DNA of 64,000 nucleotides from Acidimicrobiia bacterium (GTDB taxonomy: Bacteria > Actinomycetota > Acidimicrobiia > Spongiisociales > ZC4RG35), in NCBI GenBank assembly GCA_965204615.1, contig OZ242000.1, positions 1,281,803 through 1,345,802 on the forward strand, read 5' to 3'. This document shows, in pieces, positions 13,883 through 52,132 of the stretch. The notes under the pieces are model-generated. The model was not told the DNA's origin. It did no database searches and saw nothing but the letters and a program-made list of their open reading frames with translations. The stretch's first letter is position 1. Every line of letters starts with the position of its first letter. Both the position numbers and the translations under genes were made by a program.

Positions 13883-15079
13883 TCAGGAAGAGATTGTCCG
13901 ATCCGAGATCAGACCGGTTTGGGGATCGCTCAGAATCAACTTGCGCCGCCCGTCGGGAAGTAACTCCTCCTTGACGACGTCAAGGCCCTGATAGGTGTCG
14001 GCGCTTCGACCGATGCGGGGAGTCGAACCTTCCCGCCACTGCGCTTTCACGGGCTCCCATTGCCGAGTGTCGGCAGACTTGTAGGCGGCGTCGAGGATTG
14101 CATTGACAATGTAACCGTCGTAGAAAGTTTCCTGGGGCTCGCGGCCCTCGTCCATGGCATTGAACATATCGGTGAACATATTGACATAGCCCAGTTCGAA
14201 TACTTCGTCCCCCACCGGGAAGAGCCAGCCTTCGGTGGACTCCAACTTCTCGGCCACGTATCCCCCGCCGGTTCCGGCGGTGTACATCTCGATCCCGGTT
14301 CGCAGGAAGTGGTTGAGCCAGATGGTGCCGGCCGTCCCGGCCACCTCATCACGGAGGTCCATCCCTCCCCGGAAAGTCCAGCTGACCTCCACCTGGCCAA
14401 TGGCCCCTGACTCGAACCTGATCAGGACCACAGCGTTGTCCTCGGCCTTGATGGGATGAACCAGAGTATCGGCATGACACATCACTTCCAAGGGTCGGTT
14501 GTCCTTTCCGACATAGTTGCGGATGATCTCGATGCAGTGGCATCCGAGATCCACCAACGCTCCGCCCCCGGCCCTTTCGATCTCCCAGAACCACGCGCTG
14601 TGAGGGCCCGGATGGGTTTCGCGGGATCTCGCCCAGGTCACATCGCCAATCGCTCCGTTCCTGACCGCCGCAGCCGCTTTGAGGCCTTTGGGCGTGTAGC
14701 AGAGATCCTCCAGATAGCCGGTGAACACTCCCGCCTCCTCCACGCATTCGAGGATTCTCCGGGCTTCGGCAGCGGTGCGGGCCAACGGCTTGGTGCACAA
14801 CACCGCCTTGCCCGCCTCGGCCGTCAACCGGATCGCCTCCTCGTGGAGATGATTGGGAAGCCCCACTACCACCACATCGGTATCCGGGTGATTGATGGCT
14901 TCCTCCATGGAGTTCGTATACACCGGGATGCCCCAACGCTGGGAAAAGGCATCACCCCTCTCCTCCGTGCGGGAATAGACCACCCCCACTCGGTCTCTAC
15001 CCCGCTGACTATGAAGTGTCATGGTATAGAAGTCGCCGATCAAACCGGTTCCCAGCATGGTCACACTATGGCTTTTCAT
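13883..15079 (-). CDS. Gfo/Idh/MocA family NAD(P)-dependent oxidoreductase
   Basis: 398 aa; strong AAGGAGG RBS; N-terminal Rossmann ([13 protein letters not shown]) and C-terminal alpha/beta domain typical of the family; last gene of the nag-type operon. Confidence 0.85.
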
Positions 15080-15151
15080 TTTGTTTCCTCCTTGACTCGA
15101 CCTGCCTCAGCAATGCAGGAGATCCAATACATAATTTCAATCTCTCCTCTG

Positions 15152-16273
15152 TCAGCGGTGATAGACCTCCATTCCGCCGCGGAGAGTGCGCACCACTCGG
15201 TAGTCAGTGTCCAGCACGACGATGTCGGCGACGCTTCCAGGCTGCATATCTCCCAAAGAGGGGCGACCCAGTAGCCGAGCGGGTGTTTCCGTGGCGGCTC
15301 GGAGGGCTGATACCGCCGGCAGCCCCAGGTCCACAACATTGCGAACCGCTCTGTCCATGGTCAGGAGGCTGCCCGCCAGGGTTCCATCGCCAAGATGCGC
15401 CCGGTCACCGCTGATCTCGATCCGACGGCCTCCCAGTCCGGCGCGCCCCGGCGCAGACACGCCCGCCGCCGCGATGGCATCGGTGGTCAGGAAGACCCTG
15501 TGGCCGGCCACCTTGAACACCAGCCTTACCACCTCCGGAGCCAGGTGACGCCCGTCGACTATTAGAGCCACCGACACCCGGTCATCGTCCAGGGCTGCTC
15601 CCGGTATGCCCGGACGGCGGTGATGTAGCCCACTCTGGGCGTTGAACAGGTGATTGACCGCCACCGCGCCGGCGTCGATAGCCGCCCGGGCCATCTCGAC
15701 GGTTGCGTCGGAATGCCCGATGGACACCCGGACTCCGCCTCGGACGAAGACTTCGATGGCCTCCAGAACACCCCGCACCTCGGGCGCCACCGTCACCCAA
15801 CTCACCTGAGGGTGGGAGACTATCCATCCCACCAGGTCGCTTGTCGCCTCCCGGAAGTTGGCCGGATCATGAGCGCCTTGCTTAGCAGGAGACAGAAGGG
15901 GTCCCTCCAGGTGGACACCGACCATCCCCGGTGTGGTGACAAGAGCCTCCGCCGCCACGGCCAGTGCGTGCTCGTAGGTCTCCCAGGGAAGCGAGATGAA
16001 GGTCGGCTGAAAGGTGGTGACTCCAGTGGCTGCCATGGCTGAGGCGGCTTTGTGATAACCCTCCACATCGGCCACAGCAAAATCCACCCCCGCAAAACCA
16101 TTCACCTGATGATCAATGTAGCCCGCCACGGCCAGGTAACCGCTTCCGTCCGATGACAGACCCACCTCACCAATGCGCCCGCCGACGGTGCTGGCATCCC
16201 CTTCGACCATCCGCCCGGCCACCAGCACTGCATCTACTCCCAGACGCGACCGGTTTCCCAGGTGATCGACCAC
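15152..16273 (-). CDS. nagA: N-acetylglucosamine-6-phosphate deacetylase
   Basis: 373 aa; GYIDHQVNGFAGVDF metal-binding region and overall NagA architecture; GTG start. Confidence 0.8.
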   Translation of the reverse strand: MVDHLGNRSRLGVDAVLVAGRMVEGDASTVGGRIGEVGLSSDGSGYLAVAGYIDHQVNGFAGVDFAVADVEGYHKAASAMAATGVTTFQPTFISLPWETYEHALAVAAEALVTTPGMVGVHLEGPLLSPAKQGAHDPANFREATSDLVGWIVSHPQVSWVTVAPEVRGVLEAIEVFVRGGVRVSIGHSDATVEMARAAIDAGAVAVNHLFNAQSGLHHRRPGIPGAALDDDRVSVALIVDGRHLAPEVVRLVFKVAGHRVFLTTDAIAAAGVSAPGRAGLGGRRIEISGDRAHLGDGTLAGSLLTMDRAVRNVVDLGLPAVSALRAATETPARLLGRPSLGDMQPGSVADIVVLDTDYRVVRTLRGGMEVYHR

Positions 16274-16384
16274 AGTCAGCTAACGCTCCACACCCGGGCG
16301 CTCGTGCGCCCTCCCATCATGGCCACCGCCGGCCGGCACCGAAGGGGGTAGCTTGATCGGTGCCATTCGATGCCTCCGTGACGC

Positions 16385-17197
16385 TCAATGTGAATGAGAC
16401 CACCCAATGTCTCCCCGGATGCATGCATCCACCCCGAAGTCGTACGCCTGACGGTAAAAGTCGGCGTGCTGCAAACGGGAGGCAGCGGCCTCGTCCACAA
16501 TCACCCTCACCCGGGGGTGCAACTGCAGAGCGGAAGCCGGAACCATGGCAGTTAGAGGTCCCTCGATTGCGGCGGCAACCGGCGCCGCTTTTGCCTCACC
16601 GGCGGCAATCAGAACCAAATGCCGGGCATCAAGAATCGTTCCGATGCCTTGTGTCATGACAAGCCTTGGCACCGACTTGAGATCATGGCCGAAAAACCGA
16701 GCATTGTCCTGACGAGTGACTTCGGTGAGAACCGCCAACCGCGTCCTGGAGGCAAATGACGAAGAGGGCTCATTGAACCCTATGTGCCCGTTCCTGCCTA
16801 TCCCCAACAGTTGAACGTCGATCCCTCCCGCAGCGGCTATGGCTTCCTCATATGCGGAGGCAACTTCTCCTGGTCTGGAAGGACCGCCATCAAGACTGTA
16901 AACAGCCCCTTCGGGAAAGTCGACATGCGCGGTGAAGTCCCGCATGATCACCGCTCGGTATCTCTCAGGATGGTCAGATCCAAGACCCACATATTCGTCA
17001 AGAAGAAAAGCGTGAGCTGAACTGAACGATATCTCTCCCCGGCGGTATCTGGAGATCAGTTCCCGATAGGTCAGCAATGGCGTGTTGCCGGTGGCCAAGC
17101 CTAAAACCGGTTGCTCGCACCGGGCCAGTACCCGGCAAACAACGTCTGCGGCGACTATGGCGACTTCCGCCGCCGAAGAGGCGATGACGATCTCCAT
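16385..17197 (-). CDS. nagB: glucosamine-6-phosphate deaminase
   Basis: ATG at 17197 (MEIVIASS...); motifs LGLATGNTP, FLLDEYVG, LLGIGRNGHIGFNEP. Confidence 0.8.
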   Translation of the reverse strand: MEIVIASSAAEVAIVAADVVCRVLARCEQPVLGLATGNTPLLTYRELISRYRRGEISFSSAHAFLLDEYVGLGSDHPERYRAVIMRDFTAHVDFPEGAVYSLDGGPSRPGEVASAYEEAIAAAGGIDVQLLGIGRNGHIGFNEPSSSFASRTRLAVLTEVTRQDNARFFGHDLKSVPRLVMTQGIGTILDARHLVLIAAGEAKAAPVAAAIEGPLTAMVPASALQLHPRVRVIVDEAAASRLQHADFYRQAYDFGVDACIRGDIGWSHSH

Positions 17198-17287
17198 ATT
17201 CGCAGTCCCCCTAAGATCAGAACCGCGATTCGCGCGGTGCAGCACCCGGATATCCATGAGATGGGCGGGTGTCTGCTCCTACGGTCA

Positions 17288-18295
17288 TCATCTCTTACCG
17301 GGTTGTTCGAAAGCCGCCAGGGTTGCCGCTCCCAGGGCGCCGAGAGGAACTGCCGGTCTGAGCAACAGCCTGTCAGCCAGGTTGATGTCTCTGACAAAAT
17401 CGGACTGGCGGGCCATTCTTTCCAAAGCCGATCCAATGCTGTCGATGAGGAACATTCCGGCGTCCGCCACCCCACCTCCCAACACGATCAACTCTATGTC
17501 AAAGGTGATCGTCAGCAAATAGATCGAGCGAGCCAAGTGGTCGGCAACCCGGTCGGCGACTTCAACCGCGTCCTTATCGCCGGTCGATGCGGCATGGAAC
17601 AAATCCCGGGCGGCGGCCTCCGAGTCGCTGCCCGGCCATTGACGGGCGATCGCCGGTCCCGAAGCAACCGTTTCCAAACAGCCGAACAGACCACACCTGC
17701 ACCGGGGACCGTCGGGCAATACCGGAAAATGCCCTATCTCCCCGCTTACTCCTGCATGGCCCCGGTGGATCTTGCCGCCTATGATCACTCCCGCCCCCAC
17801 GCCGGTACCGATACTCAGGAAGACAAGATCGTTTATCGATCTGGTTCGCGAAAGGAAGACGTATGCGCCAAGACCTGCGAGTTCTACATCGTTGCCTATC
17901 AGGATTGGGACTTTGTGGACAGACCGCAGCGGCGTTACGAGATCGAGAGGAGCTTTGTCGATACCAAGATTTACAGCCTGTCGCACCAATCCCGTCATCG
18001 GGTCAACCAATCCGGGCGCCCCGATACCCACAGCCGCGATTGCGGCAGGGGAGATCAGCCCCAGGACTTCGTCGACGACCTCGAGCGCCGTATCCACCAG
18101 CGCACGGCCATTGCCGGTGGGGGTCCTACGGCATGACTCGGCTATTGGTTGAAAGTCTTCGTCAAAAACGGCCGCTTGTGTCTTGAAGCCGCCGATGTCA
18201 ATGCCGATGACCGTCCCGGGCTGTGCAGACTTCGCCAGGCTCACCAGGGATTGTGGGGAAAATGAGGGTCGCCGGGACGGTCTCCGGACATTCAT
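17288..18295 (-). CDS. ROK-family sugar kinase (putative N-acetylglucosamine kinase/glucokinase)
   Basis: VIGIDIGGFKT ATP-binding motif, CRCGLFGCLE zinc motif of ROK kinases; start uncertain (ATG 18295 or internal GTG). Confidence 0.75.
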   Translation of the reverse strand: MNVRRPSRRPSFSPQSLVSLAKSAQPGTVIGIDIGGFKTQAAVFDEDFQPIAESCRRTPTGNGRALVDTALEVVDEVLGLISPAAIAAVGIGAPGLVDPMTGLVRQAVNLGIDKAPLDLVTPLRSVHKVPILIGNDVELAGLGAYVFLSRTRSINDLVFLSIGTGVGAGVIIGGKIHRGHAGVSGEIGHFPVLPDGPRCRCGLFGCLETVASGPAIARQWPGSDSEAAARDLFHAASTGDKDAVEVADRVADHLARSIYLLTITFDIELIVLGGGVADAGMFLIDSIGSALERMARQSDFVRDINLADRLLLRPAVPLGALGAATLAAFEQPGKR

Positions 18296-18335: not shown

Positions 18336-19238
18336 TCATTTCACAGCACCTTCGGTAAGGCCCCCGAGAAACTGCCGAGAGAAGACCACGTAGAGTACAA
18401 CAATGGGGACCATCGCCAGGGTGAGGGCCGCCAATATCGCGTTCCAGTCCGAGGCGAACTGGCCCAAGAAAGCCTGGGTGCCAAGCGTCACCGTCTTGGT
18501 GCTTTCACCCGGAGCCAAGATGAGCGGAAACCACAAGTCATTCCAAACCGGGAGCATGGTGAACACCGCCACCGCGGCCATCCCCGACCTTACCAAGGGA
18601 AGCACCATCGCAAAGACGCGATACTCGTTGGCGCCGTCGACTCGCGCGGCAGCCTTGAGGTCTTTTGGGACCTGACGCATGAATTGGCTCATCAAGAACA
18701 CCCCCAGCGGGATTCCCATAGCCGTATAGACCAGAATTAGAGCCCACAGCGTGTTCACTAGGTTCAGTCGGACCATTAGATCCAAGATGCTGACAGTTCC
18801 GAGCCGAATGGGAATCATAATCCCAATAGCGAGGTACAGTCCCAACAGTGTATTCCCCGGGAACCCGTATTCCACCAGGGCGTAGGCCGCCATGGTCGAC
18901 AAACCCACTACCAACCCGAGAGAGACTACCGTTACAAAAATACTGTTGGAAAAATAGATATGAAATGAAGACCCTTCGATCACCGTCCGATATCCCCTGA
19001 GATCAAAAGTTTCGGCCGTGGGAAACGTAAAAGGAGTATCGAAGATGGCACGACGGGATTTGAGCGAATTGGCAACAATCAGGACCATGGGACCTAAGGC
19101 CAGCAGAGTATATGCCACTAGAACAGTTTGTACGCCTGTCGAACCCAGCCGAAAGTTCTTCTGTAGTCTTCCACTGCCGTTTTCACCAGAGGATGTTAGG
19201 TCAGCGGGGGACGGGTTCAGAGAGGGGTGGCTGGTCAT
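18336..19238 (-). CDS. carbohydrate ABC transporter permease (MalG/AraQ-like)
   Basis: ATG 19238 overlaps upstream stop (ATGA); six-TM permease with EAA-loop-like region (AARVDGANEYRVF...). Confidence 0.8.
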   Translation of the reverse strand: MTSHPSLNPSPADLTSSGENGSGRLQKNFRLGSTGVQTVLVAYTLLALGPMVLIVANSLKSRRAIFDTPFTFPTAETFDLRGYRTVIEGSSFHIYFSNSIFVTVVSLGLVVGLSTMAAYALVEYGFPGNTLLGLYLAIGIMIPIRLGTVSILDLMVRLNLVNTLWALILVYTAMGIPLGVFLMSQFMRQVPKDLKAAARVDGANEYRVFAMVLPLVRSGMAAVAVFTMLPVWNDLWFPLILAPGESTKTVTLGTQAFLGQFASDWNAILAALTLAMVPIVVLYVVFSRQFLGGLTEGAVK

Positions 19239-20143
19239 AGCTCGTAAGTGGTGACTCGACGTTGCCAGGCAAAGGTATAGACCAAGACTCCAAGCAGGAT
19301 GATCAAGAACATCGCCGAGGCAACAGTTGCTCCCATCGCCGGACTGCCAAGGCGCAGTTGAAAGCCAAAGAAGCTGCGATAAAACAAAATGCCCATAATG
19401 TCGGAGGCGAAGTCCGGGCCGGCCAGAGCCCCTTTGACCGTGTAGATGAGATCGAAAGCATTGAAGTTGGCGACATAGGTTACGATGGTGATTATTCCCA
19501 GCATGGGAAGCACCAGCGGGAAGGTTATCTTCCAGAACACTTTCCAAGACGAGGCACCATCCACATTGGCTGCCTCAATAAGCTCAGACGGTATAGCCAC
19601 CAGCACTGCATAGAAAAAGATCATCGGGATTCCCACAAACTGCCACACAGAAATCAAAGACAACGTTGGAAGAACGGTATGGGCTTCGCCTAACAATGGC
19701 GTTTCGATTACTCCCCACAACGGACTGAGAATCTGCCGCCATATGAACCCGACGATCACCACGGACAGCGTCGTGGGTATGAAGATGAGGGTTCGATAGA
19801 TTCGTTGGCCCCAAATCCCGGGCGCGGTCAGGAAGGCGGCCAAGAGAAGAGCCAGCGGATTCTGCAACAAGAGATGGAAACCGAAGAATAGGAAATTGTT
19901 TCTCAAGGCATTCCAGAACTGAGTGGACCATAGATCGTCGGTGAAAAGCGTGCGGAAATTGTCCGTCCCGACAAATACGCCAGCATCGTCAAAGAAGCTC
20001 AGCCGCAGGGAATCCAATAAGGGATACACCATGAAGACCGTGTAGATCACCACAGCCGGCGCCAAGAAAACGATGATGTGCCAAGATGCGCCACGTTTGC
20101 TCCGGCCGGATAACCACTTCTTTTCTCTGACTGTCTTCAACAT
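19235..20143 (-). CDS. carbohydrate ABC transporter permease (MalF/AraP-like)
   Basis: ATG at 20143 downstream of hairpin; EAANVDGASSWKVFWKITFP EAA motif. Confidence 0.8.
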   Translation of the reverse strand: MLKTVREKKWLSGRSKRGASWHIIVFLAPAVVIYTVFMVYPLLDSLRLSFFDDAGVFVGTDNFRTLFTDDLWSTQFWNALRNNFLFFGFHLLLQNPLALLLAAFLTAPGIWGQRIYRTLIFIPTTLSVVIVGFIWRQILSPLWGVIETPLLGEAHTVLPTLSLISVWQFVGIPMIFFYAVLVAIPSELIEAANVDGASSWKVFWKITFPLVLPMLGIITIVTYVANFNAFDLIYTVKGALAGPDFASDIMGILFYRSFFGFQLRLGSPAMGATVASAMFLIILLGVLVYTFAWQRRVTTYEL

Positions 20144-20165
20144 TCGGTTGTTCGTTTCATTTATG

Positions 20166-20195
20166 GGTGGGGACGGGAGAGATCCCGTCCCCACC
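20166..20195 (-). terminator. perfect 13-bp stem / 4-nt loop hairpin between binding-protein and permease genes (putative attenuator / mRNA stabiliser)
   Basis: GGTGGGGACGGGA-GAGA-TCCCGTCCCCACC read directly. Confidence 0.4.
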
Positions 20196-20793
20196 ACATT
20201 CTTTACGAGAGAACCGTCAACCCAAGAGGCCTAACCGGCCGGGGTGTACCAGGAATCCAATCCTTCTTGGAGCCGCTGGACTGCTTCTTCGGGAGTTGTG
20301 GTCCCGTTGACGACCGCCGCGCTGGTAGCCCAGAGCTCCTCCTCCAGATTCGGTTGCCCGCGGGAGAGAATCTGGTATGAGTTACGAATCGTCGACTCGC
20401 ACTCTTCCCGCCAGGACACGAATTCCTGGGCCACGGGATCGGTCAGATCTACAGGGGTGTCCTGCAAGCTGAAGAATCCGGGGAGAGCGTTGGCATAAAG
20501 GCCTGCGAAAGCCGGAGACGCCACCCACGACAGGAAGGTCCGAGCTGCTTCCACGTTGGGGGAGGCAGCGTTCATGCCTAATGCGATGTCGGTGTGATCG
20601 CTGATGTAACAGGTCTCTTGCCCAGCCGGAAGCGGGGGCTTGAACGCACTGTACTCAAAGTCCGCATTGGCGTTGAAACCGGCTATTTCCCAGGAGCCCG
20701 CCGGATAAATGGCAGCTTGACCAAGCGTTGATGACGATCAGCGAAAGTGCCCAGAGTCGATCAGCGAAAGTTCCCACCCTGGGTTGGGTGGTT

Positions 20794-21582
20794 TTAGGCT
20801 AGCAGGTCTCCTTTCGGGCGGTGTTTTCTGGCTTGTGCTTGGTAGCTTCGCAGGCGGTAGCTGTCGCCGGTGATGGTGAACACGACGCTTTTGTGGAGTA
20901 GGCGGTCGAGCATGGCAGCGGCGATGGTGTGGTCGGAGAAGATCTCTCCCCAGGACGCGACACCGAGGTTGGTGGTGAGAATGATTGATCCTTTTCCGTA
21001 CCGTCGGGAGATGACCTGGAAGAGTGTGGCGGCGTCTTCTGCCGGCATGGGCAGGTATCCGAGTTCGTCGATTATCAACACTTTGGGGGTGTTGAAGAAC
21101 CGCAGGGTTTGGGCCCATCTTCCTTGTAGGGCGGCTTTGCGGCACCGCGCCGCCAGGTCGGCGGCGGTGGTGTAGTACACCTTGTGTCCGGTGTCCACCG
21201 CGGCGCGTCCGAGGATGACCGCCAGCATGGTTTTACCCACGCCGGGCGGTCCGATGAACAAAACGTTGGTGGCGTCGGCCAGGTAGGCGCCGGTGGCCAG
21301 TTCTCTTATGAGTTTCTCGTTGATGCTGGGTTGGGCGGTGAAATCGAAGTCTTCCAGTTTCCAGCGGGTGGGGAAGTTCGCCAGTTTGAGACGGGTTTCC
21401 CATCTGCGCTGTTCAGTGGTTTCGACTTCTACTCGAAGTAGACCTTCCAGGAACTGGGTGTGTCCGGTGTTGTCCTGACGCGCCGTCTCGAGGTGGGTGG
21501 GGAGCGCCTCGGCCGCGGCGGGTAGGTCGAGGTAGGCCAGATGGCCTCGTAGTTGTTGGTACACCGATTGTTGGTTCATCAC
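20794..21582 (-). CDS. istB: IS21-family transposition helper ATPase IstB
   Basis: 262 aa; Walker A GPPGVGKT, DnaA-like AAA+ core. Confidence 0.9.
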   Translation of the reverse strand: MMNQQSVYQQLRGHLAYLDLPAAAEALPTHLETARQDNTGHTQFLEGLLRVEVETTEQRRWETRLKLANFPTRWKLEDFDFTAQPSINEKLIRELATGAYLADATNVLFIGPPGVGKTMLAVILGRAAVDTGHKVYYTTAADLAARCRKAALQGRWAQTLRFFNTPKVLIIDELGYLPMPAEDAATLFQVISRRYGKGSIILTTNLGVASWGEIFSDHTIAAAMLDRLLHKSVVFTITGDSYRLRSYQAQARKHRPKGDLLA

Positions 21583-22874
21583 AGCCCCCGGTTTTGTTGG
21601 TCGATGTGCCGCTGATAAACCTCCAGGTCTATCACCGTTTCTGTGTACAGATCAGCTCCGATACCCGAAGCGATAGCCAAAGCCGCTGCCGATGGCGGAC
21701 GGTTGGGTTTGGGTTTGCAGGGTGGTTTGGTAGTGAACTCGGCCAGGACCACGTTCTCCAAAGCAGCGGTGTGTTCGGGTAGCCGTACCACCCGTCCCAT
21801 ACCGCGGGGTGCCTGCTGGTGGGTAGCGACCAGCCGGCCACTGGCCGAGAACATGCTGATAGTGGGGTCACCCAGCCGCCAACGGACGGTGACCTGGGTT
21901 CCTATCACCCCTGGTGGCACCGAGTATCGGTTACCGCGTACCGATACCAGCCCGTTGGAAGCCACCCTGCGCTCCAGGACCCCTTCCGCCGGGTAAGCCA
22001 CCAGGGGCAGCTCGAGGAGAGGCTCGGTCTCGGCCAGTTCCCCCACGGTGCTCTCGCCTCGTGGACGGGCGTCGCCCACCGTTTGGCAGAAGCTGTCCAG
22101 GCTGTGCTGTGCCTGGGCGATGCTGGTCACCGCCGCGGTGCGCCACCACCGCTGAGAGACATAGTGAATGGCCTTTTCCACCACGCCTTTCCGTTGAGGA
22201 CGGCGCGGTGGGCACGGATCGACAACCACCCCGTAATGCTTGGCTACCCCAACGAACGACGGCTGGATACGACCGCCGGCGGCGACCACGGTCGCCATCC
22301 GATCCACCCGCCACCGCCGCGGGGTGCCCCCCAGGCGTCTCAACACCTGGTCGAGACCCTCCACCAAATGGGGTTGGTCCTGGCGGGACGTGATCCACGC
22401 CCGAAAAGCGCCCGAGTGCGACAACACACCCACCAACACATGAGCCGTGGCTCCCCACGGGGCATCACGCAGCTCCACCCAATCCCATTGACACTCCTCA
22501 CCCGGCGGATGATCGATGATCGCAGTGGCACGGCCCCTGGTGCCCGCACAAGCGCCACACAACGGCCGCAGGCCCCGGTTGCGGATCTTCCGCACGAACG
22601 TCGGGTAACTCTGCGAATAGCCCAAAGCCACCACCTCGTCGAACAGCGCCGACCCCCACACATGCGGATCATCAGACAACCGCTGCCGCACATACGCCTC
22701 GAACTCATCAAACAAATCCGCCCCCGCCCGGGCACGCTGACCGGGCACCCGATCGCCCGACAGATACGCTCGCACGGTACGGCGGCTCTTACCAACATGA
22801 CGGGCAATAGCCGAGATCGACCACCCCCGCCTCCTCAAAGCATGAACTTCCACGCACTCCTCCAGTACCAACAT
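21579..22874 (-). CDS. istA: IS21-family transposase IstA
   Basis: 431 aa; N-terminal HTH (GWSISAIARHVGKSRRTVRAYL), DDE integrase core. Confidence 0.9.
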   Translation of the reverse strand: MLVLEECVEVHALRRRGWSISAIARHVGKSRRTVRAYLSGDRVPGQRARAGADLFDEFEAYVRQRLSDDPHVWGSALFDEVVALGYSQSYPTFVRKIRNRGLRPLCGACAGTRGRATAIIDHPPGEECQWDWVELRDAPWGATAHVLVGVLSHSGAFRAWITSRQDQPHLVEGLDQVLRRLGGTPRRWRVDRMATVVAAGGRIQPSFVGVAKHYGVVVDPCPPRRPQRKGVVEKAIHYVSQRWWRTAAVTSIAQAQHSLDSFCQTVGDARPRGESTVGELAETEPLLELPLVAYPAEGVLERRVASNGLVSVRGNRYSVPPGVIGTQVTVRWRLGDPTISMFSASGRLVATHQQAPRGMGRVVRLPEHTAALENVVLAEFTTKPPCKPKPNRPPSAAALAIASGIGADLYTETVIDLEVYQRHIDQQNRGL

Positions 22875-23999
22875 AAGGGGCAGGGCTCCTCTCCACAGCT
22901 AGGAAATGTGACAATCCCTTAGCTTGGAGAGAGCCCTACCCAACAACGGGCATTTACCCCCAGGAGGTGGGAACTTTCAGTGATCGAGACTGGGAACTTT
23001 CAGTGATCGCCAACAGCGTGAAGAGGTTCTGCGCATCGGTGTACGTCACTGCAGAGGCTCCAAGCGGCAGGTACTCGGACCAACGGGCCAGCGAGACAAA
23101 GGTGTCCACATAGGGCTGGTCCGTGAACTTGGCAGAGCCGTCAATCAGGGCCGTTCGACCTGCTTCACCATCCCAATAGTTGGGGCCAATGTTCTGGAAC
23201 CCCATGGTGGCGGCTTCCCACAAATCGGCGGTTCCCATACCGAGCGGTACGTAGGAGCCTTCCGCGGCTATCGCTTCCAAGACTTCGAAGAACTCATCTT
23301 CCGTCTGAGGTACCGCAAGACCAAGCTCGTCGAACGCTTCGACATTGTAGATAAAGCCGTGTATGACCGAGGCCATAGGTACACAGAAAGGTGTTGAGCC
23401 ATCATCAGTGATCCAGGCGCTTTGAGCCACTGAGCTGAAGGTCTCGATACCGGGTAGATCATTCAGCGGGGCCAAGTGGCCCTGGTCGAAGAGTCCCAGT
23501 GAGGCATCAAAGGGACGACATGTTATCAGGTCACCGGCAGTGCCTCCCTCCAGCCGACTGGCCAGAGCGGCGTTGTATTCAGTTGGAGGAGAGGGATTGA
23601 ATTCCACGTCGATATTGGGGAACTCCGCTTCGAATGCCGGGATGATCTGGTCATTCCAAATAGCCAAGTCATCATTTCTCCAGCTTTCGATGGTGATGGT
23701 CACCGGCTCATCCGCCGCGGGAGCGGCAGTCGTGGCCGGAGCAGCGGTCGTGGCCGGAGCAGCGGTCGTGGCGGGAGCGGCGGTCGTGGCCGGAGCAGCT
23801 TCTTCTCCGCTGTCTCCACATGCTGCAGCCAACAGCATTATTCCTATCAAAACAGCAATCCGCCTGCCAATTTTCAGCATATGCTCTTCTCCTTTTACTC
23901 TTGACCCCAAGGGGGTCGCTTACATGTGCGAAGCTGGAACTGCTGCGTCAAAGCCAATGCACACACCAAGTTCCCAACTTCTCCGCGGGAGTGGCCACA

Positions 24000-25133
24000 T
24001 TAGGCGACCCCCAACTCCTCGCTGATCACCACACCGGCTGCACCGAGCAATACGATCTCGTCGCCCAGGCTCGTCCACCGGACCTCCACCAACTCAGCAA
24101 TTTGGTCGAGACAACGGCTGCGGAGGCTCTCCGCAGCCATCTCGCAAAATGAGTCTCCCAACTGTTCCTTAGGCCCCGCCACCAATATCAAGTGCAAATC
24201 AAGCACCGAGGCGATGGCGGCCATCACCGCTCCGAACCGCTGTGCGGCTGTTTGCAGCACCTCCTTGCGACCAGTCCCTCCCTTTACTTGTCTCCGGATA
24301 TTCGGTATGGACACAAAGGTCTCCAGGCATCCTCGGTGACCGCAACCACAGATGTGACCTGTTTCGTCCACAACCAGATGACCTATCTCCCCTGCTGAGG
24401 CGCTGTCCCCTGTCAGCAGCCGATGGTCTACGATCAACCCGGCGCCGACCCCCGAACCAATCCTTACCACTACCAGGCTGTCACGGTCATGGTTGCCTCG
24501 GGTGTACTCCGCGATGGCGGCGGCCTGGGCATCGTTACTTACGTAGGTGGGGTGACCCACGGCCTCTTCTATGGCATCCGCCAGTGCCACATCGCGCCAT
24601 TCGAAGTTCGAAGCCTCCACTATCTCACGCCCGTGGACGACCAACCCCGGAGTGCCCACACCTATCCCCAGTATCGGTGCAGTGGTACTGTCGACAGCCT
24701 GTGTGACAATGTCCTTCACCATTGTGATGGCCCGATCACCGATGCAGTGACCCGTCTCGATCACAACCTCCTGAACGATCTCTGCCGCAAGATTCACAAC
24801 CGCGGCTCGCATGGTTGCCGGTTCGCTCAAGTCGACAGCAACAACATTTCGGGCATCTGAGCGGATCCGCAACATAGTTGGTGGTTTTCCGACCCTGTTG
24901 TTTATACGGCGGGGACCAACTTCCTCGACCAAACCCATGTCCACAAGTTGGGCCACGAGCCCGGAAACCGTCGCAGGCGTCAGACCGGAAAGGCGCGCCA
25001 CTTCGGCACAACTCATCTGGTCTCCCGAAAAGAAGTGCTGGAGAACCAGCCGTAGGTTGTTCGAACGGGTGTCACCCTTTCCCGCCTTGGTGGAGACCCT
25101 CAAAGGCAAATCGCTCCTCTGCCGTACTCTCAT
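24000..25133 (-). CDS. ROK-family transcriptional regulator (NagC/Mlc-type) with N-terminal winged HTH
   Basis: 377 aa; HTH (MSCAEVARLSGLTPATVSGLVAQLVDMGLV) plus ROK sugar-binding domain with CGCGHRGCLE zinc motif; immediately upstream of the nag-type transporter genes. Confidence 0.8.
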   Translation of the reverse strand: MRVRQRSDLPLRVSTKAGKGDTRSNNLRLVLQHFFSGDQMSCAEVARLSGLTPATVSGLVAQLVDMGLVEEVGPRRINNRVGKPPTMLRIRSDARNVVAVDLSEPATMRAAVVNLAAEIVQEVVIETGHCIGDRAITMVKDIVTQAVDSTTAPILGIGVGTPGLVVHGREIVEASNFEWRDVALADAIEEAVGHPTYVSNDAQAAAIAEYTRGNHDRDSLVVVRIGSGVGAGLIVDHRLLTGDSASAGEIGHLVVDETGHICGCGHRGCLETFVSIPNIRRQVKGGTGRKEVLQTAAQRFGAVMAAIASVLDLHLILVAGPKEQLGDSFCEMAAESLRSRCLDQIAELVEVRWTSLGDEIVLLGAAGVVISEELGVA

Positions 25134-35500: not shown

Positions 35501-37528
35501 TTAACCGGTGTCCGGGACGACCTTGAACACGTTGTCGGAAATCTCGTCTTCTATGGGAGTGTTGCGTCGAATTATGTCGGCCAGAGCGGTGGTGCGAACT
35601 TCCTGCAGAAGGTCGGGGTTGGCCAGGAAGTACTGGTCATTCTCGAACCAGAAGCGATCTCCCTCGCGTAGGCGTTGGAACTGGTCCAAGATGATCGCGC
35701 GGAGAGTGGGTCCGACGGCCGCTCCAGGAACATGATCTTCCGCCAGTGCCCCCGCCCAGAGGTCCAATCTGTCTATCCTGCCGTACGCCAAAGCCAGGGC
35801 CTGCCCGACCCGCGACCGGGACGACACATCAGCAAGAGAGGCAAGCGGCGCCAGACCGTAAGCGCCGCGTACAGCATTGAAATCACCCAGTCCGTGATCC
35901 CTACTGCGCTGGATGTTCAGGGCAGCCAGATCAAACTGTGGACCGCCCGGTCCCCTCAGCAGCATGTTACGAACTTCGTCTATCACCATTGCATCCACTT
36001 CCTGAGCCTCTTGAGCGGCCAGTCCCCTCAGGAACGCGGAAACACCGCGCTCGGTAACGAAGGAAGGATTGAAGAATGCATCGGCAAGGCTGAGGGCCTC
36101 CGTGTCTCCGCCGCCACTGCGGATCAGGAGGTTGGGAGACAGCATGGTGTGTCCGACTCGAAAGGCCGCGGTTGAGAATTCGTTGGCGATGGTCGGATCA
36201 ACCCCCGGGTCGTATCCCGTATAGGGGTCTATGGCGTGGGGACCCAACAGCAGCGGCAGGAATTCGTTGAAGGTTATGGCTTGGATGTGAGCGCCGACCA
36301 TTTTGCGAGCCCGTTGGTAGATCTCTTCTCCGCTCAGTCCGGGAATCTGTTCGGCGAGGGCATCAGCGACGCGGTTGTGCTCTCGTACGAACAGGGTGTG
36401 CAAAGAGGTGAGCCCGACTTGCTCGTTGACCCGCACATCACCTGCAAGGAACAGATCTTCCCGATCCCTGCCTCCTTCGTTCTCCAGGTTGGCTTCGTTG
36501 TAGAGGAGGAACCGGCCCTGTTGTGATGTCTTCAGTTTTCCGGTGCCGTCGCGGGTACGGAGAGAGTGTGCCCGATGCCAATCCGAGCCGTACACTTGTG
36601 AACCGTCGATGAAGGCCGTGACAGTGTTCATCTGTCTCCTGGGATTGTCCGGACCGGTCCCGGTTGCAGGATCGAATGCAGAACGATCAAAACCGATCGC
36701 GCCCTCACCCGTTCCGTCGGGATCGAAAGCCGGATCCCATTGAGGAACTGCAATGGGCAGGGGCTCGGCGACGTTGGTGGGAGTGAGGCTGATGTCGTGG
36801 TCCAGGAATTGTCCCCACTGCCAGAACATGTCACTGAGCCGGAGGGAATTGGGCACGGGTCGGCTCTGGGCAAACACAGAGTTGCTCACCGCCCGGGGAT
36901 TCGGTCCCGAGGTTGGAGGGGTGGATACGCCGTCCGAATAGGAGGTCGGACCCTTACGCAGTAGACCTGTGCCCGCCATGCCCCAAGTGGGGTTGGATGT
37001 ATTGTTTCCCCGCCCGTCAATCGATCGAGGCTCCCAGGAATCCGGATACTCTTTCAGACTCAATGAGAGGGTCTCACCCGGTTGCCACTCCAAATCCACG
37101 CCAAACCATATGTAGTGTCGCGAATCCACCCTCCCGTCCACGAGATTGAGGACCTGATCGGGGAGGTGGAACCCCAGGCGCCCGAAGTTGTCCGGGAGAC
37201 CGGGTAAGAAGTAAATGCTCAGGTTCTTGGACTCCGGATTCGCCGTTTCCACCAGGACCACACCCGTCACGGTGTAGGACGCACCTTTCCATAGCAACTC
37301 CGTGTTGGAGAGGCCTCCGGCGCGTTGCTCGAGATACCCGATGAAACCTCCGTCGTCTCCCACTGTCAAAGCGGTTTCCCACACCGCATTCTCTTGAGGC
37401 GGTGAGTCACCTCCCGGCTGGGTTGGAGATGTGACTTCGACGGCCTGGCCTACGGACCCATAGAGAATGGACGTTGCCACGAGGCAAATAGCGACCACGA
37501 GCAGTCTCCCGGGCGAGAACCCCCTCAT
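35501..37528 (-). CDS. secreted animal-type heme peroxidase (peroxidase-cyclooxygenase superfamily) with ~170-aa N-terminal accessory domain
   Basis: Distal-His motif FWQWGQFLDHD, proximal-His region LFVREHNR, RSRDHG and RSIDGRGNNTSNPTWG motifs; signal peptide from ATG 37528 (MRGFSPGRLLVVAICLVATSILYG); ATG overlaps upstream stop (ATGA). Confidence 0.8.
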   Translation of the reverse strand: MRGFSPGRLLVVAICLVATSILYGSVGQAVEVTSPTQPGGDSPPQENAVWETALTVGDDGGFIGYLEQRAGGLSNTELLWKGASYTVTGVVLVETANPESKNLSIYFLPGLPDNFGRLGFHLPDQVLNLVDGRVDSRHYIWFGVDLEWQPGETLSLSLKEYPDSWEPRSIDGRGNNTSNPTWGMAGTGLLRKGPTSYSDGVSTPPTSGPNPRAVSNSVFAQSRPVPNSLRLSDMFWQWGQFLDHDISLTPTNVAEPLPIAVPQWDPAFDPDGTGEGAIGFDRSAFDPATGTGPDNPRRQMNTVTAFIDGSQVYGSDWHRAHSLRTRDGTGKLKTSQQGRFLLYNEANLENEGGRDREDLFLAGDVRVNEQVGLTSLHTLFVREHNRVADALAEQIPGLSGEEIYQRARKMVGAHIQAITFNEFLPLLLGPHAIDPYTGYDPGVDPTIANEFSTAAFRVGHTMLSPNLLIRSGGGDTEALSLADAFFNPSFVTERGVSAFLRGLAAQEAQEVDAMVIDEVRNMLLRGPGGPQFDLAALNIQRSRDHGLGDFNAVRGAYGLAPLASLADVSSRSRVGQALALAYGRIDRLDLWAGALAEDHVPGAAVGPTLRAIILDQFQRLREGDRFWFENDQYFLANPDLLQEVRTTALADIIRRNTPIEDEISDNVFKVVPDTG

Positions 37529-37911
37529 TTCGCAGACGAACCCGTACGCATACCAGAGTCGCAGAAAAATGTCTCTTGGCAATACCCGGCACTATCACCT
37601 TCGCAGAGGCCGTCGTAACAGGCCGCCTCGGCGTAGCGCCCCTGGCCGGCGACGCCACCGGTCCCCTCCGGCACACCGGTCAGCGTGACCTCAACCGCCG
37701 CGGCGTCATTCGATCCATGGTTCACCGCCTCGGTGGTGCAGGCGCCCCGGTTTCCGGTCGCCACTACTCGAAAGTCATACCCACCCACCCTTTCATCCTC
37801 CTCAATCCTCACAGCAAGGCTATGGGCCGGCGGTCGATGAAATCGCAGCCGGGCGTGGGCAGTGGGGCTGGAGGCCGCCGACGTTATGACGGTGGCGGCA
37901 ACCAGGAACAC
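37525..37911 (-). CDS. small secreted protein (128 aa) with C-terminal Cys cluster, translationally coupled to the heme peroxidase
   Basis: GTG start; hydrophobic N-terminus (MFLVAATVITSAASSPTAHA); C-terminus ACYDGLCEGDSAGYCQETFFCDSGMRTGSSAK; stop TGA overlaps peroxidase ATG. Confidence 0.45.
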   Translation of the reverse strand: MFLVAATVITSAASSPTAHARLRFHRPPAHSLAVRIEEDERVGGYDFRVVATGNRGACTTEAVNHGSNDAAAVEVTLTGVPEGTGGVAGQGRYAEAACYDGLCEGDSAGYCQETFFCDSGMRTGSSAK

Positions 37912-38831: not shown

Positions 38832-39734
38832 CTAGGGCTTGGAGCGGGAAATGCAGCGGAAGCCGATGTGGGTGGTGGAGGTGTCGACGGTCTGCGACTG
38901 GCGGGCGGCGGGCCGGTATCTGAAGCAGTACTGGATGGTGCAGAGGTGCGAACCGCCCTTGATCACCCGGGTGGGCGCCGGGTCTTCGCCGGGGGTCTGC
39001 GGGGCACAGCACGGGGATGCCGGAGGTCCGGCCGAAGGGAGCCGGTAGGGGTCGGAGGTCCACTCCCACACGTTGCCGGCCATGTCGTGGAGGCCGTGAC
39101 CGTTGGGAGGGAAGGCGCCGACCGGGCTGGTGTAGGCCCAGCGGTCCAGTTTGGTGTTCTCGTAGGGGAACCGGCCCTGCCAGGTGTTGGCCAGGGGGGC
39201 GGTCTCCTGCGGATCGTCATCGCCCCAGGTGAACTCGGCGCCCTCCAGGCCTCCCCGGGAGGCGTACTCCCATTCGGCTTCGGCGGGTAGCTCCATGCCG
39301 GCCCAGCGTGCGTAGCTCTCCGCGTCCCGGTAGGCGACGTGAACCACCGGATGCTCCTCGAGACCCTCCAGGGAGGATCCCGGTCCGCGGGGATGGCGCC
39401 AGTCGGCGCCCGGGGTCCATGCCCACCAGCGCCAGAACTCCCCCGGGTTCACCGGACCGGGGGTCATCGTGAAGACCAGCGATCCCGGAACCAGGTCCTC
39501 GGGTCGGGCGTCGGGGTAGGAAGCGGCGTCGGGAGGCCGCTCCGCCACGGTCACATGGCCGGTGGCCTCGACGAACCGCCGGAACTGGCGGTTGGTGACC
39601 GGGTGAACATCGATCGCGAACGGCCCGACGGTGACCGTCCGGGCCGGGCTCTCTTCGGGATAGTGGTGATCCGACCCCATCGAGAACCCACCGCCCGGGA
39701 GCCACACCTGGGAGTGGTCGGGTGAAGTTATCAT
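38832..39734 (-). CDS. formylglycine-generating enzyme (FGE/SUMF1 family)
   Basis: 300 aa; near-colinear with the mycobacterial FGE pattern (LPGGGFSMGS, VTNRQFRRFVEATGH, GNVWEWT, KGGSHLC, YCFRYRPAAR). Confidence 0.85.
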   Translation of the reverse strand: MITSPDHSQVWLPGGGFSMGSDHHYPEESPARTVTVGPFAIDVHPVTNRQFRRFVEATGHVTVAERPPDAASYPDARPEDLVPGSLVFTMTPGPVNPGEFWRWWAWTPGADWRHPRGPGSSLEGLEEHPVVHVAYRDAESYARWAGMELPAEAEWEYASRGGLEGAEFTWGDDDPQETAPLANTWQGRFPYENTKLDRWAYTSPVGAFPPNGHGLHDMAGNVWEWTSDPYRLPSAGPPASPCCAPQTPGEDPAPTRVIKGGSHLCTIQYCFRYRPAARQSQTVDTSTTHIGFRCISRSKP

Positions 39735-50368: not shown

Positions 50369-52132
50369 CTAGGAGGCTGCTGAGTATTGGTGTTGGTGGG
50401 TGGGGTGTTGGTGGTCTGAGGCCGGGTGTTTGGTTTTCTCCATTGTGGTGTTTCTTCCCTTGGAGAGCGCATGTGGAGACGGTCGGGGGCGGGTTACAGC
50501 GGGTTAGGTGGGTTTGGTGGCCCAGCCGGTGGGCGTGTGACAGAGTCCGAGGTTGATGAGGCGTCGTAGGTTGATTGCGGCGATCCGGGTGTGGAGTTGT
50601 TGTCGGTTGGGTTCTATGCCCCGGTATCTGAGTTTTCGGTTCCCTCGGGCGACGATGTGAGCGATGATCCGTTCCACTGATGGTCGCCAACGGTTGTAAA
50701 AGGCGACGGTTTCGGGTTGTTTCCATCGTTGTCTGGCCCGGTCGAGCTGCCGATGGTGGGGGTGGATCTGTAGGTGCCGTCCTGTTTTGCTGGTGGTGCA
50801 ACGACTCCGGTAGGGACAGTCGGTACAGACCGCTCTGAAACGGACCCGTCCCGTCGATCCGATGGTGGCGGTGTTACCGGCCGGGCAGGTCACCTGCCCT
50901 TGTTCGGGATCGATCACAAAGTCGTCTCGGGTGAACTGGTCGGCTCCCAACCGAGGGTTGCGTCTCTCGGGTATGGGCTTGATCGTGGCCCGGTGACCGG
51001 CCTCGGCCAAGGCCGCTCGAACCTCGCCCGACCCGTAGGCGGAATCGGCGACAACCTCGGTACCCGGTTCGTCTTCCAGCATGCCCACACCGGTGGTACC
51101 GTCCGGGGCGGTGGCCGAGGTGATCTCACAAGAAGTGACGATCCCCGTTTCGGGCTCGGCCACGATATGTGCTTTGTAACCGTCCCGACGCTGCGAAGAC
51201 GTTTTACGTCCGTGACGAGCCTGCGGATCAACGACCGAGATCGTCCGATCCGAAGCGACCCGGCGGGCGATCCTCCATCTGCCCGGCCGATCAGGATCGG
51301 GTTCCACGTCCTGGCCGACCACCACCCCTAACAAACCCACCGCTTCTGACTGTCGATCATCCAGATCAATGTCCCTAACTGCTTCCAGCACCGCCAGCCC
51401 ATCGGTCACCAAACCGTTGATCAACTCCGAGCGACTGTCCGGGTCCGACCAATCACAGGATGGCTTGCTCCCTTGGTTGTAATCATGGGACAACACCACC
51501 TCACGCGCTTGGGGGATCAGACGGCGGCACTTGCGAATCTGGGATGTGATCATGGTCACTGTGTCCTGGGTGACCACCGCATCATCCAAAACCGTGGAGT
51601 CCAACACCCGGCGGGTGCGACCCGACAACACCCCCGTCTGGTCCACCACCCTCCTAACCGCCTCGAATATCCGCTCCGGCGCCCTACTGTTTCTCAGTCT
51701 CGCCCGCCACAATGTCAACACCGTGGGATGAAACCCCTCATCGGTCAACGACAACCCCGCGGCGGCTTTCCAACGAATATCACACCGCAACCGACCGATC
51801 GCTTCCCGATCCGACAGGCCTTCCAACGCCTGTAACACCATCACCGTCGCCACCACCGACCCTGGAACCGATCGACGACCCCGCGGACCGAACAGATCCT
51901 CGAACATCCCATCCGGGAACACTGTCTTGCGGTGCTCGGCCAAAAACCGATGAACCGACCCTTCAGGAACCAGATCACCACACACCGCCATCGCGTCCAA
52001 CAACTGCCGATCAAAACGTTCACTACCCAACATACCCCGAATTATCTCACAACCCACCCCCCAACACCAGCATTCACCAACCCCACCCACCCGAATAAAT
52101 CAGCAGCCTCCTAGGGTATCGTTCTTCCTGAT
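50362..52132 (-). mobile_element. IS1182-family insertion sequence (~1.77 kb)
   Basis: Single 509-528-aa transposase; imperfect terminal inverted repeats CGAT(G/A)..CTAGGAGGCTGCTGA….GGTGGGTGGGGT at 50362-50410 and (reverse) 52075-52132. Confidence 0.7.
50504..52033 (-). CDS. IS1182-family DDE transposase
   Basis: N-terminal FLAEHRKTVFPDGMFEDLF and C-terminal AINLRRLINLGL segments characteristic of IS1182-family transposases; ATG 52033 (frame opens at 52090). Confidence 0.8.
   Translation of the reverse strand: MLGSERFDRQLLDAMAVCGDLVPEGSVHRFLAEHRKTVFPDGMFEDLFGPRGRRSVPGSVVATVMVLQALEGLSDREAIGRLRCDIRWKAAAGLSLTDEGFHPTVLTLWRARLRNSRAPERIFEAVRRVVDQTGVLSGRTRRVLDSTVLDDAVVTQDTVTMITSQIRKCRRLIPQAREVVLSHDYNQGSKPSCDWSDPDSRSELINGLVTDGLAVLEAVRDIDLDDRQSEAVGLLGVVVGQDVEPDPDRPGRWRIARRVASDRTISVVDPQARHGRKTSSQRRDGYKAHIVAEPETGIVTSCEITSATAPDGTTGVGMLEDEPGTEVVADSAYGSGEVRAALAEAGHRATIKPIPERRNPRLGADQFTRDDFVIDPEQGQVTCPAGNTATIGSTGRVRFRAVCTDCPYRSRCTTSKTGRHLQIHPHHRQLDRARQRWKQPETVAFYNRWRPSVERIIAHIVARGNRKLRYRGIEPNRQQLHTRIAAINLRRLINLGLCHTPTGWATKPT

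Follow-up and report, generated by a model that had tools for sequence, protein, structure and literature searches.

The locus examined here raises a simple question: what separates the two halves of a solute-binding lipoprotein gene in an operon for an ATP-binding cassette (ABC) importer, where exactly does the intervening DNA begin and end, and what has its arrival meant for the operon? The window, i.e. the whole stretch of DNA analysed, comprises 64,000 nt (64 kb) of contig OZ242000.1 of an Acidimicrobiia bacterium (assembly GCA_965204615.1, positions 1,281,803 to 1,345,802). The reading reached is that a complete insertion sequence (IS) of the IS21 family has almost certainly been inserted in a binding-protein gene of the family-1 (CUT1) type via the usual IS21 pathway, and that the importer is probably disabled by it. 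The element and the interrupted gene consist of the following features:

20729..23015, minus strand: complete IS21-family insertion sequence, 2287 bp, termini 5'-TG...CA-3', limits taken from 40 related copies and the inverted-repeat register
21579..22874, minus strand: istA, DDE transposase of 431 aa, with an N-terminal helix-turn-helix (HTH), an rve core and a Mu-transposase-C-like beta-barrel
20794..21582, minus strand: istB, AAA+ helper ATPase of 262 aa, matching PF01695, NF038214 and IS5376 IstB
22966..23015, minus strand: istA-proximal terminal inverted repeat (TIR; L-TIR when the element is read in its own direction), a 19-bp direct repeat in two identical copies at 22968-22986 and 22991-23009
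20729..20778, minus strand: istB-proximal TIR (R-TIR), two 19-bp direct repeats at 20735-20753 and 20758-20776, 95% identical
20725..20728, no strand: target-site duplication copy 1, GCGT, by the family-defined ends
23016..23019, no strand: target-site duplication copy 2, GCGT, by the family-defined ends
23016..23880, minus strand: N-terminal part of the lipoprotein gene (family-1 solute-binding protein), coding for a signal peptide, a lipobox-like motif (...LLAAAC) and an (APATTA)n linker
20231..20728, minus strand: C-terminal fragment of the same binding-protein gene, stop at 20231

Genes and protein families of the element

The two genes of the element lie in tandem on the minus strand, istA (22874 to 21579) followed by istB (21582 to 20794), the start of istB overlapping the stop of istA by 4 nt (GTGA). 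The pair of 431 and 262 aa presents the long istA and shorter istB in one orientation by which the IS21 family is recognized. IstA scored 180.8 bits against the NCBI curated model NF033546 (IS21 family transposase; cut-off 160), the runner-up family being IS481 with 38.6 bits against a cut-off of 224. Pfam matches in IstA included PF00665 and PF22483 together with the N-terminal HTH. Its PDB matches were only two, both to the IstA of IS5376 (8B4H and 8Q4D; E about 3e-30, residues 10-341), the best being 8B4H with an E-value of 3.4e-30. In the 8B4H alignment the residues D131, D191 and E233 fall on the catalytic D124, D187 and E233 of IS5376, and the DDE triad is thus intact. Mutation of these three residues in IS5376 IstA abolishes integration (PMC10122671). 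IstB matched PF01695 with an E-value of 1.1e-75 (254.6 bits, cut-off 24.1) and the curated NF038214 with 260.7 bits (cut-off 200), and its best PDB match was the IstB of IS5376 (8Q3W, E 2.8e-63), alignable over 244 residues. Both the Walker A motif GPPGVGKT, starting from residue 111, and the Walker B motif LIIDELGY, starting from residue 169, are intact. An earlier sequence-only reading of this DNA had proposed an istA/istB element of the IS21 family, and the scores above the curated cut-offs and the best PDB matches of the two proteins bear out this assignment.

The structurally characterized element of the family is IS5376 of Geobacillus stearothermophilus (PDB 8B4H, 8Q4D, 8Q3W and 5BQ5). 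The element in the window shares with it the istA-istB pair, the IstA domain order of HTH, DDE core and beta-barrel with the catalytic D/D/E aligned, and TIRs of two direct repeats per end with a 3' CA (PMC10122671). The similarity between the two IstA proteins is, however, distant (108 bits), the duplications of IS5376 are of 5 bp (PMC10122671) while those of the window lineage are mostly of 4 bp, and the host phyla differ (Bacillota and Actinomycetota, respectively). Judged by its genes, motifs and ends, the 2287-bp element is assigned to the IS21 family, and its anatomy nowhere departs from the family description. The family prototype, IS21 of plasmid R68.45 from Pseudomonas aeruginosa, has two genes, terminal repeats L1-L3 and R1-R2, and a 4-bp target duplication, and its tandem form (IS21)2 has junctions in which a few bp separate the abutting ends; elsewhere in the family target duplications of up to 8 bp occur. 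In comparison to IS21, the repeat search found only two repeats per end in the window element, and the 64-kb window is without a tandem copy.

Terminal repeats, exact ends and target-site duplication

The inverted-repeat arms at 20726-20778 and 22966-23018 were 81% complementary over 53 nt. In each TIR of about 50 bp the paired 19-bp repeats have a spacing of 23 bp, which is kept also in relatives, and the two tandem terminal repeats that had been described for each end were thereby recovered. When the window was searched with an 18-mer of the repeat, tolerating at most three mismatches, four sites were found, and these were exactly the TIR repeats; 0.05 sites were expected and none of 100 shuffles reached four. 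In the IS21 layout istA and istB lie between TIRs that each consist of two direct repeats (L1/L2, R1/R2) with a 3' CA end, and IstA requires two complete repeats per end (PMC10122671). The TIRs of the window element are likewise built from multiple direct repeats.

To the 65 loci obtained with an IstA scan of one genome per GTDB species the window element was aligned with BLASTN. The alignments to related copies spanned positions 1-2287 of 20729-23015 and halted exactly at both ends, and in the inverted-repeat register 20729 pairs with 23015. Junctions were tabulated for the 40 complete related copies having flanks on both sides. All 40, as well as the window copy, begin with TG (TGTTG or TGATG) and end in ...TCA or ...ACA. 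The target duplications of these copies were of 4 bp in 32 cases and of 5 bp in three, and the remaining five lacked a duplication or had one of 2 bp or less, a tandem junction being among these five. For a perfect 4-bp flanking repeat the chance probability is 1/256 per copy. The flanks of the window copy read ACGC...ACGC in the orientation of the element (GCGT on the plus strand), which gives the short target-site duplication characteristic of IS21 elements. Because the inverted-repeat register and the homology of the 40 copies end at the same bases, the element is placed at 20729-23015, with a 4-bp duplication GCGT.

The interrupted gene and its restoration

The open reading frame (ORF) of the broken binding-protein gene starts with the ATG at 23880, runs on into the IS and meets a stop at 22954. 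The full-length binding protein cannot be made, and the product is truncated after about 289 native residues. In-silico removal of 20729-23019 (2291 bp, i.e. the element and one copy of the duplication) produced a continuous minus-strand ORF of 452 aa from the same ATG. A clean bisection with matching reading frames had been claimed, with an expected length of about 440 aa, and this excision had been named beforehand as the test able to refute it; the uninterrupted ORF upholds the claim.

The restored ORF matched PF01547 (SBP_bac_1) with 106.1 bits against 26 and PF13416 (SBP_bac_8) with 87.4 against 27, and thus has over the mature protein the domain that defines the family-1 (CUT1) binding proteins. 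It contains no frameshift, stop or indel. The restored junction, NLFTL/GQAAIYP, aligned without gaps with the 13 closest full-length relatives and was identical to most of them; at the DNA level the reconstructed empty site reads ...CCAAGCGT followed directly by GAAGAGG.... In comparison with 113 orthologues, the restored protein shows no change at any of the 105 invariant positions or of the 174 positions conserved in at least 95%, while the orthologues themselves show a median of one departure from such conserved positions. An 18-nt tandem repeat at 23720-23799 (4.4 copies, 90% match) encodes the (APATTA)n linker of Pro, Thr and Ala, situated just after the lipobox Cys. Also the lengths of the orthologues vary in this linker region.

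Neither half of the gene is decayed, the duplication is perfect, istA and istB are intact and the TIR repeats are well preserved, and these features together support an evolutionarily recent insertion into a gene that would have been functional at the time. The earlier description of the event as precise, undecayed and recent agrees with this, as all the conserved positions are kept and the IS ORFs are of full length. The element is apparently transposition-competent and may be mobile at present; in related genomes many copies of its lineage occupy different sites and are flanked by fresh duplications.

The operon and its predicted substrate

The broken gene belongs to an operon with the following further genes:

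24000..25133, minus strand: upstream ROK-family regulator with an N-terminal winged HTH (NagC/Mlc-like), PF00480 with E 7.8e-40 plus the HTH
18336..20143, minus strand: two ABC permeases directly downstream of the broken gene (about 20143 to 19235 and about 19241 to 18336, start codons uncertain), PF00528 (BPD_transp_1) in both
18295 to 17288, minus strand: ROK kinase, PF00480 with E 6.7e-65
17257 to 16385, minus strand: nagB, TIGR00502 with 249.4 against 236.9
16273 to 15152, minus strand: nagA, TIGR00221 with 247.2 against 225.65
15079 to 13883, minus strand: Gfo/Idh/MocA oxidoreductase, GFO_IDH_MocA match

The permeases, ROK kinase, nagB/nagA and oxidoreductase had all been named in the sequence-only reading, and profile matches confirm each of them. 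The downstream catabolic genes (13883..18295, minus strand) are all intact ORFs. The ROK regulator matched also the NagC and Mlc models, with scores below the cut-off.

The closest binding proteins in a collection of 5.8 billion proteins were 80-86% identical over 87-90% of the query. The gene for one of these (P0008, 85% identical) lies on a contig of 5.17 Mb, where the operon is conserved in full synteny and has no IS (locus L001), the order being ROK regulator, binding protein, two permeases, ROK kinase, nagA, nagB and Gfo/Idh/MocA. This locus, from another genome and not from the same species, is the best available empty-site comparator.

The substrate of the importer had been given as GlcNAc or chitooligosaccharides. 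This label is a reasonable one in view of the gene context, i.e. nagA, nagB and the ROK genes, and on that basis an amino sugar is the probable substrate. The binding protein scored 43.5 bits against the NgcE equivalog model TIGR03851, far under the cut-off of 399.65, and an identity as an NgcE-type binder of GlcNAc/diacetylchitobiose was rejected. The JGI labels of its orthologues are raffinose/stachyose/melibiose binding proteins, and its best solved relatives are raffinose-type binders and the chitin-oligosaccharide binder NagB2 (E about 1e-14), too distant for the assignment of a ligand. The NgcE/DasA-type binders of GlcNAc and chitobiose in Streptomyces resemble the window protein in being family-1 (CUT1) lipoproteins whose operons include genes for two permeases but none for an ATPase, while the window protein differs from them in its score against the NgcE model and in its nearest structures. 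Beside this comparison, the window operon features an adjoining ROK regulator and then the ROK kinase, nagB and nagA.

The G+C content of the permease stretch (18600-20200) is 0.50-0.54, compared to 0.60-0.68 in the surrounding genes, and GC3 across the operon is 0.58-0.74, compared to 0.8-0.9 in many neighbours. The low G+C of the operon could reflect the composition of membrane proteins or a foreign origin. Scans of all 64 kb for Rfam families and tRNAs found nothing, and there is thus neither a tRNA-linked island nor a known RNA at the insertion site.

Proposed mechanism and probable loss of the importer

In the proposed pathway the DDE transposase IstA would bind the paired repeats of each TIR and synapse both ends of the element, while the AAA+ ATPase IstB would capture the target DNA. 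The target would then be cut with a 4-bp stagger, the repair of which would create the GCGT duplication, and the element would be placed in the orientation of the operon between the codons of ...NLFTL and GQAAIYP.... ABC importers need their cognate binding protein. Since the binding protein is lost here, the transporter should be inactive, unless another binding protein acts as a substitute. That the uptake arm is likely non-functional, as the sequence-only reading had it, therefore holds for the loss of the full-length binding protein, and the loss of uptake itself is its probable consequence.

For annotation, the two binding-protein fragments are to be treated as one pseudogene disrupted by an IS, and metabolic reconstructions of this organism should not list the importer among its working transporters. 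Otherwise the insertion is routine biology of an ordinary intact IS, and it raises no mechanistic question on IS21 transposition. The ends, the repeat architecture and the 4-bp duplication are now fixed for an IS21 lineage that is widespread in metagenome-assembled genomes (MAGs) of Acidimicrobiia, and the defined ends aid in recognizing other insertions of the lineage as well as the contig breaks that they cause in assemblies.

Alternative explanations

The same IS21-family insertion had been read earlier with an element of 20729-23014 and a 5-bp duplication AGCGT. The pentamer is indeed literally present on both sides (20724-20728 and 23015-23019), IS5376 produces 5-bp duplications (PMC10122671), and three of the 40 related copies have genuine ones. 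With a duplication of this length, however, the element would lose its terminal base, yet each of the 40 relatives starts with TG and ends with CA, and the homology to the window copy continues through 23015, the partner of 20729. When the boundaries fixed by the family are applied, the flanks share just 4 bp (cacgc against acgct). The fifth base is not part of the duplication, because the A at 23015 complements the element's own terminal T and the chromosomal A at 20724 matches it by coincidence, the chance of such a match being 1/4. We therefore consider the 5-bp version very improbable and rejected it: the pentamer was correctly seen, and the duplication is GCGT. The coordinates shift accordingly by one base, the element ending at 23015 instead of 23014 and the N-terminal fragment starting from 23016 instead of 23015, while the C-terminal fragment at 20231-20728 stands as given. 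It could further be thought that the element is a dead relic, or that the binding-protein gene was a pseudogene already before the insertion, the event then being old and without functional consequence. The closest copies elsewhere differ by 7-9% in DNA and the comparison lacks a genome of the same species, both of which would suit an old event, but such an event is hardly to be reconciled with two full-length IS ORFs with their catalytic motifs kept, with paired repeats in both TIRs (the istA-proximal pair 100% identical) and a perfect duplication, or with a restored binding protein that is without lesions and has all its 174 highly conserved positions. Misassembly was judged unlikely, as a chimeric join would not yield a perfect duplication around two in-frame halves of one gene. 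No observation contradicts the preferred reading of a recent IS21 insertion into the binding-protein gene, but it has limits: no empty site from the same species or a sister strain was found, the closest binding protein being 86% identical; a 24-mer across the reconstructed empty site had no matches in the metagenome collection; the element occurs once in the window, a count that covers these 64 kb only; and, should the sequence derive from a metagenome assembly, part of the population might lack the insertion.

As to the genes behind the insertion, the sequence-only reading had taken a polar effect as probable; a polar effect may exist, and the alternative to it is that transcription continues by read-through from the operon promoter or from istAB, or starts from a hybrid outward promoter at the istB-proximal end. 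In that case expression of the permeases, the ROK kinase, nagB and nagA would persist, perhaps no longer coupled to the ROK repressor, and their products would serve amino sugar arriving by another route. The element and the operon share their orientation, all the downstream ORFs are intact with scores above the family cut-offs, and no convincing minus-strand intrinsic terminator was found inside or after the element, the sole candidate being a weak 5-bp stem inside istA. Also, IS21 ends contribute promoter elements at tandem junctions. On the other side, about 650 nt extend from the istB stop (20794) to the start of the first permease (about 20143), untranslated unless a remnant ORF of 114 aa is used, and an untranslated stretch would favour Rho-dependent termination. 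No sigma-70-like promoter was found in a scan that does not model actinobacterial promoters, and the three terminator-like sites detected, compared to 3.5 expected, are at chance level; neither result is decisive on polarity. A strong hairpin at 20166-20195, in the spacer that separates the stop of the binding-protein gene (20231) from the first permease, speaks likewise against continued expression. It has a perfect G+C-rich stem of 13 bp (-44.5 kcal/mol, z -4.8) and lacks a downstream U-tract on the coding (minus) strand. The hairpin belongs to the operon itself and not to the IS, and it could be an intra-operon mRNA stabilizer or an attenuator setting the ratio of binding protein to permease; the corresponding spacer in L001 is just 26 nt. 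Taken together, continued expression of the downstream genes is possible, although we regard it as somewhat doubtful.

Relatives of the element

Nearly all of the 65 loci of the IstA scan belonged to Acidimicrobiia MAGs, among them Candidatus Spongiisocius and Spongiisociaceae, and many of the genomes had multiple copies. Nearest to the window element were the eight copies of the Acidimicrobiia MAG CBDBCY01, with 90.8-92.7% identity in DNA and 92-97% in IstA; their flanks differ from those of the window copy, and none of them is at its insertion site. Copies in other Acidimicrobiia MAGs were 73-82% identical in DNA and IstA. The copies of these MAGs (CBDBCY01, OZ242375/CBDBPZ01, OZ219757-63, Ca. 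Spongiisocius OZ241858 and others) resemble the window element in length (2280-2297 bp), in the 23-bp repeat spacing, in the 4-bp duplication and in their ends, TGTTGGCGATCA...GATCGYCATCA, and differ from it in that their DNA identity with it is at most 92.7%.

The closest annotated relatives from cultured organisms were entries for an 'IS21 family transposase' from Mycobacterium, Streptomyces and Rhodococcus plasmids, covering 83-89% of IstA. They show just 52-56% amino acid identity to it, which argues for a separate lineage within the IS21 family. Searches for identical sequences found no entry for IstA, IstB, the ROK kinase or the ROK regulator, the 24-mer of the window-specific istB-proximal end had no matches in the JGI metagenome collection, and the cluster look-up for the closest IstA clusters returned no source names. 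From these comparisons the window element appears to be a new member or isoform of an IS21 lineage without a name in the collections searched.

The number of copies per MAG was eight in CBDBCY01, nine in OZ219757-63 and six in Ca. Spongiisocius OZ241858, while OZ242375/CBDBPZ01 had 14 loci or more. Partial copies that are nested or adjacent were present at five of the loci (L006, L019, L022, L030 and L051). This pattern suggests recent bursts in several Acidimicrobiia MAGs, with insertion into or beside other copies. At one further locus (L018, 4400-4500; CBDBPZ010000002.1, an Acidimicrobiia MAG) two different members of the lineage stand head to tail with a 2-bp spacer, ...GATCGCCATCA TC TGATGGCGATCAC..., an arrangement like the tandem junction of (IS21)2, a reactive intermediate of transposition.

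A wider scenario can be drawn from the copy numbers and the site of the insertion. The lineage would be multiplying actively in marine Acidimicrobiia that are associated with hosts, with up to about 14 copies found per MAG. The insertion in the window would be a very recent, possibly still polymorphic knock-out of an amino-sugar importer, and a step in an ongoing process in which ISs cause the loss or the regulatory rewiring of genes in a symbiont; nagK, nagB and nagA might then be expressed by read-through from the IS independently of the ROK repressor. In this full form we find the scenario unlikely.

Other features in the window

A second, unrelated IS was found at 50369-52114. Its transposase ORF (50504-52090, minus strand, 528 aa) scored 322 bits against 270 with the IS1182-family model NF033551 and matched DDE_Tnp_1_6, DUF772 and DDE_Tnp_1. 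Perfect 15-bp inverted repeats, CTAGGAGGCTGCTGA and TCAGCAGCCTCCTAG, at 50369-83 and 52100-14 may mark the ends of this IS1182-family element.

On the minus strand at 35501-37582 there is also an ORF of 693 aa with a match to 'Animal haem peroxidase' (PF03098, E 1.9e-155). Such a eukaryote-like peroxidase would fit a host-associated bacterium. Near it, at 38832-39734 on the same strand, lies a gene for a formylglycine-generating enzyme (FGE-sulfatase).

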